Numbered from the stretch's first letter, positions 11,509 to 15,672 are shown. The stretch is DNA of 15,672 nucleotides from Promethearchaeota archaeon Loki_b32 (GCA_005223125.1 NJBH01000057.1:1-15672), one strand, 5' to 3'. Notes: generated by a model not told the origin, from the sequence alone. A program made the numbers and translations.

Positions 11509-11894
11509 CTTATTTAATATTGGAGCTTCTGAAGCATCTACCTCAATTTCATATGATTTTGTTAAATCCTTACGGATGATACAAAAAGATTTCTTCTTTT
11601 TATTATAGATCGAAAGTGAAGTATTATCATCTATGACAGCACGAAATTTTTCAATAAATTTACCTTCTGTATTACTTGATCCTATCCTTCTTCTTCGAAT
11701 GTTTAATCAACTAAATATAGATAAAAGTATCTTATTTCTATTAATTAATTTATAAAATTTTTATCTTAAATTCTTAACTAAAAAATATTATAAGAAATTT
11801 CTTTATTAAATTAAAAATAAAAGGGCTTATAATGTTAGTAATTTTTGAAAAGGAATATGTAAATTAAAATTTGGCAACAAAGGTATTTTAATCT

Positions 11895-12074
11895 TTAATC
11901 TAATTCTCCTTCTAAAAAAAAATTATCTCCTTTCTTCACGTATATCATTGTAGAACCGAAGTTATTTCGTACTGTGTATTTATCCCCTTGGACGTCTAAT
12001 ATCTCAATAGAATAAGACAATCTTCTTTGGTCCATGATTTCTTCAATAATTTTTTTTTCTTCCTGTGAATCCAT
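11895..12074 (-). CDS. Small hypothetical protein, 59 aa (not in the ORF track)
   Basis: Manual translation gives MDSQEEKKIIEEIMDQRRLSYSIEILDVQGDKYTVRNNFGSTMIYVKKGDNFFLEGELD*. ATG at 12074, TAA at 11897-11895, with a purine-rich GTAGTGGT upstream. It looks more GC-rich than the flanking spacers. Confidence 0.7.
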   Translation of the reverse strand: MDSQEEKKIIEEIMDQRRLSYSIEILDVQGDKYTVRNNFGSTMIYVKKGDNFFLEGELD

Positions 12075-12560
12075 GATTCTTAATCATTTACCACTACAAA
12101 AAAAAGTTATTATTTTGATAATTGAATTGAATGCATGAATAGATTTAGATAATTTTAATTGTAGGATGTATCTTAAAATAGATTAAAGTTATTTATTGAT
12201 AATTAGCTTAATAAGAAACAAAAAATAAAATACTGATGATGGATTTTCACTTAACTAAATCAATTTATTATAAGAATTAAAGAAGAATGAAGTCAAGGAT
12301 CCAGATCGAATAAATTTAGCATGGTAAAGATATTACTATAACCATCTCAGTTTAAATTTTATCCGATTTCCAAAAGAACAAAAGAATTAAAAATGTTAGA
12401 AAACCTATAGGGAAAAGAACTTTCTATCAAAGTTTTAGCATTTATTATAGGTTAAACTTCATGAGATAAGATATTATCAAGTTTATCATTAAGAATTTTA
12501 ATCTTATTGTTTCTATTCTTTATTAAAAAATCGAATTTTTTTTATTAAATATTACATATT

Positions 12561-12612
12561 TTTATATAAACATGTGTTTAATTAAAATAACTATTAAAAA
12601 ACATGTTTTTTA
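12561..12612. promoter_or_regulatory. TATA box plus palindromic candidate operator upstream of the glycosyltransferase
   Basis: TTTATATA at 12561-12568; AAACATGT at 12568 and 12599; perfect 18-bp palindrome TAAAAAACATGTTTTTTA at 12595-12612. Confidence 0.45.
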
Positions 12613-12660
12613 CACGATTAGATTTTTTTAAGAACTTAGACCTTTTACCCTGGACGCATA

Positions 12661-13930: not shown

Positions 13931-14704
13931 TTAGAAGTTAAATTGTTCTCTAATTTTTTCAACTTTAATTTTACAGGGTTCACATAATTCATTTGATTTC
14001 TCATCAATCTCTTTAATATCTTTAGAAAATCTCATAACACAAGAGTTGTTAAGACAATGATCTGGACCTAAAATTATATGACCCACCTCATGAAGTATTT
14101 CTTTAAGAATTCGCATTCCTAAAAGAGTGTGATTTTCTGGTCTATTATAGAACTGTTCTTTTAACTTTAATGATGATACTATACAGCATCTATGTTTTAA
14201 GTGAGCCTCTCCAAATAAAAATAAGATGTTATCATTGTAACTTGAAAATATAGGAAGATCAGTAATTGCAAGTATCATTCCAAGATTTTCCTCATTTCTT
14301 TTATCAATTAAAATTTGGTAAAATTTATTAGTTGGATGTATTTTAATTTTATTAGAAGATTTCTTCATTTCTTTATATTCTTTTTTCACACCCTTGTAGA
14401 AAAGCTCAATAGAGAAACTATAACCTCCTAAATCTCTAATATTAAAAAAAAAAGAATCATAAATCTGATTTAAGTAAAGTTTAATTTCTTCAAAAAAGGG
14501 TATTTCAAAATCTCCAAAAAACAGAATTCCTAAATGACACGGTAATATGAGTTTTTTTGGGGTCTCATCAATTAATTCAAATTCTATAGGGTAAGAAATT
14601 CCGATTCGATAAATCAATTTTTTTAATTTTACTTTATATCTCTTAATCTTTTGCATATATTTTTGGAGTTTTGGCATTGCTAGAATATTTAAAGTTACGT
14701 CCAA
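13931..14704 (-). CDS. amzA: Archaemetzincin-family zinc metalloprotease (peptidase M54)
   Basis: ITDLPIF, FLFGEA, RILKEILHEVGHIILGPDHC-x4-CVM-FS...D-K...LCEPC (zinc motif, Met-turn and Cys4 site). The start is uncertain (TTG at 14704 or a downstream ATG). Confidence 0.88.
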   Translation of the reverse strand: MDVTLNILAMPKLQKYMQKIKRYKVKLKKLIYRIGISYPIEFELIDETPKKLILPCHLGILFFGDFEIPFFEEIKLYLNQIYDSFFFNIRDLGGYSFSIELFYKGVKKEYKEMKKSSNKIKIHPTNKFYQILIDKRNEENLGMILAITDLPIFSSYNDNILFLFGEAHLKHRCCIVSSLKLKEQFYNRPENHTLLGMRILKEILHEVGHIILGPDHCLNNSCVMRFSKDIKEIDEKSNELCEPCKIKVEKIREQFNF

Positions 14705-14832
14705 TAAGAAGTTTCTTTCTTACAGCAAAAAAAGGAAAGAAAGGATTTTATTTTATTATTAATAGGTATTTAAGTCATTAATAATATTATAAATTAAAAA
14801 CTGATATTTTAATAATATATTTGCTCAAAATT

Positions 14833-15672
14833 ATGACAGAAGTTTCTGAAGATAAAGAATATGTTAAAAAAGATTTTATCCCGCACTTTTTTCCAACTTA
14901 TAGGATAAAAAGAAGATTATATCCTTTACCTATAATTCTTGTGGTCATTATAGCGGGAATATTAGCTTATTTAACTTATTTTGAAGCGGGAATTCAGTTT
15001 GATGTGGGATATTTTTCAGAAAGCGAAATGGGAGCATTAGGTGGGATTTTAAATGGGTTAATTTATACAGCAATAGCAGTGATCTCAGCTTTTATTATCA
15101 TATTTATAATAAAGAAGAAAGGGATAGATGTCTTAAGATATATTTTTGGATTTAGTTTTGCTCTAATAGGCTTTTTTCAAACTTGGTTTTTTGGACGAAT
15201 TGTGATTTATGTGTTTTTTTTAGAATTACCACTTTTATTCTATTTACTTTATTATGAACTAATTTTTCTTTCAGCAGTTTTTACAATTCTTATGATTTAT
15301 CAATATTTTACTTCACAATCAATAAAAACAAAAAATTTTATAGTTTTATATATAGGTTTATTAATTGGCGCGTCAATGGGGGTTTTAATGCCCCTCTGGA
15401 CAACTCTAGCTATATTAATAGGGATTTCTTGTTGGGACATATTTGCTGTATTATATAAACATGGACCCATAAAACAATTAATTGATATAGCATCCACTCC
15501 AGAAGAAGATAATGACCTATCTGACATAGAACTAAAGCAAAAAATTGAAAGTGGAGAATATGAATATGATACCTCTAAATTAGAAATTGGAATAGGAGAT
15601 TTGGCATTTTATAGTATGCTAACTTCAAGTGCACTTGTTCAAACAAATAATATAATAGTGATGATTTTAACT
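14833..15672 (+). CDS. Presenilin-family (A22) intramembrane aspartyl protease, 3'-truncated by the window (not in the ORF track)
   Basis: 280 uninterrupted codons from the ATG at 14833, with about 7 hydrophobic segments. First catalytic motif MPLWTTLAILIGISCWDIFAVLYKHGPIKQL (WD at 15433-15438); second catalytic motif EIGIGDLAFYSML (GxGD at 15589-15600). Confidence 0.93.
   Translation, partial: MTEVSEDKEYVKKDFIPHFFPTYRIKRRLYPLPIILVVIIAGILAYLTYFEAGIQFDVGYFSESEMGALGGILNGLIYTAIAVISAFIIIFIIKKKGIDVLRYIFGFSFALIGFFQTWFFGRIVIYVFFLELPLLFYLLYYELIFLSAVFTILMIYQYFTSQSIKTKNFIVLYIGLLIGASMGVLMPLWTTLAILIGISCWDIFAVLYKHGPIKQLIDIASTPEEDNDLSDIELKQKIESGEYEYDTSKLEIGIGDLAFYSMLTSSALVQTNNIIVMILT

Follow-up and report, generated by a model that had tools for sequence, protein, structure and literature searches.

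The 15,672-nucleotide stretch of DNA analyzed here, called the window throughout (Promethearchaeota archaeon Loki_b32, GCA_005223125.1, NJBH01000057.1:1-15672), carries an archaemetzincin gene (peptidase family M54) and a presenilin gene (family A22) that diverge from a shared spacer. Adjacency of M54 and presenilin genes is far beyond chance and recurs in many deep lineages. Because the linkage crosses lineages and includes overlaps between the M54 stop and the presenilin start, functional coupling is favored, and we consider a functional tie between a soluble zinc peptidase and presenilin to be the probable explanation of the arrangement.

Linkage of the two genes across archaeal lineages

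A first-pass annotation, made from the window alone, left two outcomes in view, either that M54-A22 adjacency extends across Asgard genomes or that it is confined to close relatives. Bathyarchaeia and three Asgard classes show the linkage, which supports the former and does away with the latter. NCBI organism names were set aside as unreliable in favor of kinship labels; one GTDB genus carries the NCBI labels Promethearchaeota, Hodarchaeota, Hermodarchaeota, Odinarchaeota, and Thorarchaeota, and one protein of family f6 is labeled Deferrimicrobium. Loki CR_4 (family f3) retains the divergent pair amid shuffled flanks, and a genome of f6, which belongs to a second Loki order of the same class, has the arrangement beta-CASP> <M54 PS>, where PS is presenilin. 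The pair is again divergent in family f25, which falls in a different class that also contains the 1.3-1.4 Mb family f7. In one f25 genome (G083, L044:1582-2484), a TnpB/Cas12f-like gene (TNB domain) and a 131-amino-acid (aa) open reading frame (ORF) stand between M54 and presenilin, and the pair was apparently split by a recent transposon insertion. In family f8, from a third, small class, both genes lie on one strand and share bases where M54 stops and presenilin starts (TGATG or GTGA). In family f4, named "Sigynarchaeota" at NCBI, a two-gene unit encoding a 790-aa protein and then M54 runs divergently from presenilin. The 790-aa protein, whose gene thus sits between M54 and presenilin, has five predicted transmembrane (TM) helices as well as Peptidase_S15 and PepX_C domains, such that the locus holds three peptidase genes in a row. 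We conclude that M54 behaves as a conserved operon partner of presenilin, being retained in distant lineages, through rearrangements, and in co-directional overlapping forms, and that the linkage is not universal. A small PRC-barrel gene was also seen directly downstream of the presenilin-linked M54 in f3 (L029:7740-8036) and f25 (L042:9583-9948).

A presenilin alignment headed by the f8 protein was used to scan metagenome contigs and returned 80 loci, 64 of them with readable upstream sequence. M54 was immediately upstream of presenilin in 41 of the 64, with 26 loci in tandem (M54>PS) and 15 divergent; M54 was within 4 kb in two more, and 21 had none. Candidate presenilin starts in the tandem loci overlap the M54 stop by 4 to 23 nt or, in a few loci, fall just after it. 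Moreover, a gene for an aCPSF2-like beta-CASP RNase is directly upstream on the same strand in 17 of the 26 tandem loci, its stop lying 9 to 15 nt ahead of the M54 start or overlapping it. The tandem presenilins form a single clade (34 rows, 100% support) that can be assigned to Bathyarchaeia on four grounds: presenilins from the sampled Asgard genomes never exceed 40% identity to it, the closest named relatives and Atlas clusters belong to Bathyarchaeia, the M54s of one tandem subclade are 50 to 58% identical to the M54 of Bathyarchaeota BA1, and an ArcTGT encoded together with locus L210 on an 827-kb contig is 71 to 75% identical to proteins named Bathyarchaeota/Bathyarchaeia at NCBI. The f8 presenilins are placed beside this clade, and transfer of the operon between phyla is therefore possible.

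The surroundings of the Bathyarchaeial operons vary. On two contigs (L175:2837-9184 and L210:678-5693), genes for ArcTGT and a PHP-domain protein are upstream of the beta-CASP/M54/presenilin operon, and in one subclade genes for a radical-SAM protein, a ThiF-family protein, and a TauE exporter follow it, all co-directional. In a few loci (L207:3612-4795 and L223:2066-3252), the M54 slot between beta-CASP and presenilin holds instead an ArsR/HxlR-type helix-turn-helix (HTH) protein and an unknown 200-aa protein.

To gauge background synteny, the ORFs of 31 fetched loci were mapped onto the genome of the window (G000). The loci from other classes held 82 neighbor pairs besides M54-presenilin, of which 19 were also neighbors in G000, 8 of the 19 within a single cluster, and the remaining 63 (~77%) were not shared between classes. 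Four of the seven class-shared clusters were scanned, and all were true operons (L1-L10-P1, PTH2-TruD, PadR-ABC ATPase-permease, and CCG protein-FAD oxidase). Thus, adjacency across classes marked functionally linked genes in every case checked.

Adjacency at short range was rejected as evidence of coupling. Within the genus, the long M54 of 22 out of 24 genomes is divergent from and adjacent to presenilin, and gene order is kept over more than 18 kb (MTAP, beta-CASP, DHH, mch, an orphan gene, GT4, M54, presenilin, 3-hydroxyacyl-CoA dehydrogenase, and others), and the same order appears in 80 family-level loci from public genomes labeled Promethearchaeota, i.e., Lokiarchaeia. Because the entire block is syntenic, the junction is uninformative within genus and family. 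Some of the family loci also have a Peptidase_M1 gene two genes downstream of presenilin (L109:8776-10752), with similar ORFs of 658 to 661 aa in L073, L079, L081, L084, L101, and L114; ORFs of 340 to 348 aa downstream of presenilin in the fetched loci had no Pfam match.

Two points were absent from the first-pass annotation, namely that adjacency within the genus is background synteny and that the beta-CASP RNase gene belongs to the ancestral cluster. Beta-CASP orthologs adjoin M54 in f6 and are one to three genes away from it in f25 and f4. The pair in the window is best explained as a local, rearranged form of an old archaeal cluster of beta-CASP RNase, archaemetzincin, and presenilin genes whose two proteases would work together, an explanation that we regard as evenly balanced.

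The gene pair and its spacer in the window

Pfam matched the ORF at 13931-14704 on the minus strand to Peptidase_M54 (PF07998; 74.3 bits, cut-off 24.4) and the ORF at 14821-15672 on the plus strand, which is open at the window end, to Presenilin (PF01080; 54.7 bits, cut-off 34.3), bearing out the initial identification of a divergent archaemetzincin-presenilin pair. The M54 ORF of over 60 relatives encodes 248 aa starting with MPKLQKY and begins at the ATG equivalent to position 14677, which is therefore the likely start in the window rather than the TTG at 14704. The presenilin start in relatives is the ATG equivalent to 14833. With these starts, the spacer first given as 128 bp (14705-14832) is lengthened to 155 bp. 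The features of the window that bear on the pair are as follows.

13931-14677, minus strand: M54L, a divergent archaemetzincin paralog of 248 aa; ATG at 14677, whereas the upstream TTG at 14704 would give 257 aa
14678-14832, no strand: AT-rich spacer of 155 bp common to both genes, read as a compact bidirectional promoter region
14747-14793, no strand: conserved core containing an inverted repeat with 17-nt arms; candidate operator or pair of back-to-back TATA/BRE elements
14833-15672, plus strand: presenilin, an A22A-type GxGD intramembrane aspartyl protease (PF01080), first 280 of ~324 residues; remainder on contig C14:1-262
6547-7854, plus strand: aCPSF2-like beta-CASP RNase gene (Pfam Beta-Casp, Lactamase_B, RMMBL), 6 kb from the pair

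The window is the entire contig C34 of G000, and presenilin runs off its end. The final 127 bp of C34 (window 15546-15672) are identical to positions 1 to 127 of contig C14, and the C-terminal piece of presenilin, with the PAL-motif end, was found at C14:26-253. The shared 127 bp are probably the assembler's k-mer. Because the overlap is exact, we conclude that the break inside presenilin is artificial, that the contigs are joinable, and that the gene is intact and encodes ~324 aa.

The presenilin has the (Y/W)D, GxGD, and PAL-type motifs of A22A proteins, and its PF01080 score is above the curated cut-off. SCWDIF and GIGDLAFY are in the window part (WD in TM6, GIGD in TM7) and LPGLP is in the C14 continuation, and several hydrophobic segments within the first 280 residues indicate a polytopic protein. 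In alignment A1, both catalytic Asp residues, the Gly of GxGD, and P..LP are invariant. The Loki presenilins also have an acidic N-terminal extension and a charged loop. In Loki family f2, a longer presenilin of 457 aa adjoins a P-type cation ATPase (L035:9806-12646 in G025 and L036:3924-6899 in G032) with Cation_ATPase_N and Cation_ATPase_C domains in a SERCA/PMCA-like architecture; presenilins have been proposed as Ca2+ leak channels.

Archaemetzincins have an extended motif with exact spacing, HEXXHXXGXXHCX4CXMX17CXXC (PMC3427221), and the physiological substrate of the M54 family is not known (PMC3427221; PMC4681839). The corresponding motif in the window protein is HEVGHIILGPDHC...C..CVM...C..C. 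Across ~95 M54L sequences the motif reads HExxHxxxGxxHC, in which the second His and the Gly are separated by one residue more than usual, and in some of them the Gly is replaced by Asp. Nevertheless HExxH, the third His, the four Cys residues, and the Met-turn are all retained in these sequences, the window protein included. In alignment A2 the H, E, H, H, and three of the four Cys columns are invariant, the fourth Cys (CVM) is found in every row shown, and the Met of the Met-turn is conserved at 90% or more. Spacing is normal in the presenilin-linked M54s of f4, f6, f8, and f25 and in a second, canonical M54 of 192 aa encoded elsewhere in the same genome (contig C45). The NCBIfam archmetzin model scores M54L at 104.1, under its cut-off of 145, which makes M54L an outlying archaemetzincin subfamily.

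Archaemetzincin structures have been solved since 2010, and the AlphaFold2 model of M54L (pLDDT 86, pTM 0.82) found its best PDB matches in 3LMC, 2X7M, and 3ZVS; Foldseek comparison with archaemetzincin structures gave a probability of 1.0 and a TM-score to target of 0.67 to 0.80. ADAM and TACE catalytic domains were distant structural matches. M54L thus shares with the archaemetzincins AmzA (MEROPS M54; 2X7M, 3ZVS/4AXQ, 3LMC) and human AMZ1 and AMZ2 the Pfam match, the fold, HExxH with the third His, the Cys4 site, and the Met-turn. It differs from them in the extra zinc-motif residue, an N-terminal extension of ~45 aa with a basic helix, an internal insert of ~15 aa, a conserved C-terminal NF, and the sub-cut-off NCBIfam score. 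The helix spans residues 2 to 24 of the model, is joined by a low-confidence linker, and is amphipathic and lysine rich (hydrophobic moment 0.5 to 0.6, net charge +7 to +9 per 18 residues). No TM segment or signal peptide was detected in M54L, in which the maximum 19-residue Kyte-Doolittle mean is below 1.58 and there is no N-terminal hydrophobic segment; the other presenilin-linked M54 proteins likewise have neither.

A maximum-likelihood tree was built from 60 Asgard M54 proteins. The presenilin-linked M54s of f1 and f3 form one clade, M54L, with 100% support and a branch length of 1.0. On the other side of the tree are the C45-type paralogs of the same genomes, which occupy a conserved locus of their own, together with the presenilin-linked copies of f4, f6, f8, and f25. 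M54L is a fast-evolving paralog and, judged by position, would descend from the ancestral presenilin-linked gene and have diverged after a duplication. Genomes of f9 (e.g., G169:C11:130687-130836) encode a second protein of ~165 aa whose match to the M54 profile is confined to the profile's final 50 positions, at the Cys-rich end, and that may be a degenerate or nonproteolytic archaemetzincin-like paralog.

Spacers of divergent M54/presenilin pairs range from 78 to 273 bp in 92 loci, and in the Loki family of the window the conserved spacer is ~150 bp long. Alignment of 41 distinct genus-level spacers indicated a core of ~48 nt conserved at 90% or more, within which the inverted repeat has 17-nt arms (14747-14763 and 14777-14793) that are 13 nt apart and 88% complementary. 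The core may represent a shared operator or two archaeal core promoters placed back to back. Elsewhere in the window, positions 11509-12660, between an orphan 313-aa gene and GT4, form a 1.15-kb stretch of ~25% GC without an ORF of 60 aa or more; a 59-aa ORF lies within it (11895-12074, minus strand), where relatives often have a 71-aa ORF. Rfam and tRNA scans of the window, this stretch included, gave no matches.

Possible meanings of the linkage

In the favored reading, the soluble M54 zinc peptidase would cooperate with presenilin on the cytoplasmic side of the membrane. Its most likely job would be to degrade or trim peptides and cytoplasmic stubs that presenilin frees from single-pass membrane proteins or signal-peptide remnants, and the lysine-rich amphipathic helix of M54L could hold the enzyme at the membrane surface. 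Such cytoplasmic-side action, for example, fragment clearance, would be the best-fitting role. Consistent with cytoplasmic clearing, the gene added in f4 encodes an exopeptidase-type S15 protein, and peptidase activities have been reported for M54 proteins. Human AMZ1 and AMZ2 have been reported to be aminopeptidases, and cytosolic zinc peptidases complete the work of membrane proteases in other systems. A more ambitious proposal, that beta-CASP RNase, archaemetzincin, and presenilin formed an ancient three-gene operon, which either predates the split of Asgard and Thermoproteota or spread as a unit, with M54 as the dedicated cytoplasmic partner of presenilin, is tentative, and we doubt it more than we credit it. 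No paper linking the archaemetzincin and presenilin families in archaea was found in the literature searched.

The first-pass annotation suggested that the proteases may be co-regulated and act in sequence, by analogy with a metzincin cut ahead of presenilin cleavage. In animals, shedding by a metzincin (ADAM) precedes cleavage by presenilin/gamma-secretase. Coupling is favored by the linkage across classes and the overlapping genes, but the metzincin-first order is unsupported. Conserved linkage of a metzincin-fold protease with presenilin, and the presence of ADAM/TACE catalytic domains among the structural matches, would suit two-step regulated intramembrane proteolysis in which the metzincin makes the site-1 ectodomain cut and presenilin the second. 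A site-1 protease, however, works outside the membrane or cytoplasm and so requires a signal peptide or membrane anchor, and the linked M54s have no signal peptide or TM segment, the closest folds are small, soluble, single-domain archaemetzincins, and M54 is dispensable in relatives. Moreover, no single-pass membrane regulator or anti-sigma-like gene is kept beside the pair in the lineages examined; substrates encoded elsewhere are possible. We therefore consider an extracellular sheddase role unlikely and the animal order of events a poor fit, and two-step proteolysis of this kind is highly improbable. The same annotation had cautioned that the metzincin lacks an evident signal peptide or TM helix, as hydropathy bears out, and had offered clearing of released cytoplasmic fragments as an alternative, which would fit better than shedding.

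Several observations weigh against a functional tie. M54L is cleanly deleted in 15 of the 78 readable family loci that retain presenilin; the gap between GT4 and presenilin is then typically 70 to 160 bp (269 and 676 bp in two loci), no M54L pseudogene remnants were found in the family loci that lack it, and the losses occur in several parts of the presenilin tree. Presenilin can thus do without the linked M54. M54L activity could also be changed or lost through the additional zinc-motif residue. Linkage is also absent in places; among the matches listed, each negative family except f9 is represented by one to four genomes. In f9, where 31 genomes were searched, the two genes never share a contig in genomes that have both, and the sampled genomes of f5, f7, f10, f13, f16, f17, f19, f20, f24, f26, f27, and f32 likewise carry both genes unlinked. 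Family f2 has presenilin but no M54 (0 of 11 genomes), f31 is almost the same, and control archaeal genomes have M54 and no PF01080 match. Finally, the cluster contains an RNase gene, follows ArcTGT and PHP genes in Bathyarchaeia, and may be a housekeeping gene string.

That last point leads to the alternative that M54 and presenilin are unshuffled members of an old housekeeping string (ArcTGT, PHP, beta-CASP, MTAP, APRT, and others) without a mechanistic link. The string is a live alternative because beta-CASP, MTAP, and APRT stay close to the pair in f3, f4, f6, and f25 and because ArcTGT and PHP genes precede the Bathyarchaeial operons; the block of more than 18 kb that keeps its order in genus and family, the frequent loss of M54L, and the many families with both genes unlinked agree with it. 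Nevertheless, no other link of the block is as tight or as persistent as the M54-presenilin junction, which is overlapping or translationally coupled in two lineages and survives changes of orientation and flanking genes. Most other neighbor pairs are not shared between classes, the shared clusters that were scanned are functional operons, and the gene inserted in f4 is yet another peptidase. Relic synteny is possible but doubtful.

Translational coupling suggests stoichiometric partners and so could also mean that M54 acts on presenilin itself, by a cut in the acidic N-terminal tail or the TM6-TM7 loop that serves maturation, activation, or quality control in place of the eukaryotic autoproteolysis. 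The basic helix of M54L could dock on the acidic extension or the charged loop, which would be cytoplasmic if the topology is that of eukaryotic presenilins. Presenilins with intact catalytic motifs persist, however, where M54L or all M54 is absent, and the archaeal presenilin homolog PSH is active without processing, which leaves action on presenilin improbable. Less probable again is that M54 serves the beta-CASP RNase, in its processing or regulation, with presenilin a passenger at the operon end. The close spacing or overlap of beta-CASP and M54 in the 17 tandem loci and their abutting genes in f6-type loci speak for such a link, but M54 and presenilin are adjacent without an adjoining beta-CASP in f1, f3, and f8, and the unlinked M54 genes examined are never next to a beta-CASP gene. 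We conclude that cooperation between M54 and presenilin at the cytoplasmic face would account best for the linkage.

Relation to known systems and significance

The pair in the window resembles the animal gamma-secretase/ADAM system in that its presenilin is of the PF01080 type, carries both Asp motifs and a PAL-like motif, and is genetically linked to a metzincin-fold protease. The local metzincin differs in being soluble, without an export signal and thus without a part in ectodomain shedding, and dispensable in relatives. Nicastrin, APH-1, and PEN-2 were not seen among the neighbors scanned with Pfam, although no search was aimed at these cofactors. Archaeal PSH (PF06550 type, e.g., MCMJR1) is likewise a stand-alone archaeal GxGD protease, and no cofactor genes were found in the cluster neighborhoods examined; the window protein and its relatives differ in matching PF01080, and not PF06550, as the main family. 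Closer in proposed logic are the disposal pathways in which a membrane protease frees fragments and a cytoplasmic, often zinc-dependent peptidase removes them: SppA and then oligopeptidase A, RseP and then ClpXP, and gamma-secretase, whose intracellular domain passes to insulin-degrading enzyme. The enzyme families of these pathways are unrelated to the M54/presenilin pair, and to our knowledge their genes are not operon partners.

We know of no study of archaeal presenilins other than as in vitro models of gamma-secretase. The cross-phylum and often translationally coupled linkage is the first context clue for archaemetzincins and archaeal presenilins. If the proposed partnership is true, it would give archaeal presenilins their first pathway context and the M54 family, including human AMZ1 and AMZ2, a first physiological role, namely handling the products of presenilin/SPP-type intramembrane cleavage. 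AMZ1 and AMZ2 would then be worth examining downstream of gamma-secretase or SPP. The linkage would then also point to an ancestral pairing of membrane protease and cytosolic peptidase in the lineage that gave rise to the eukaryotic presenilin.

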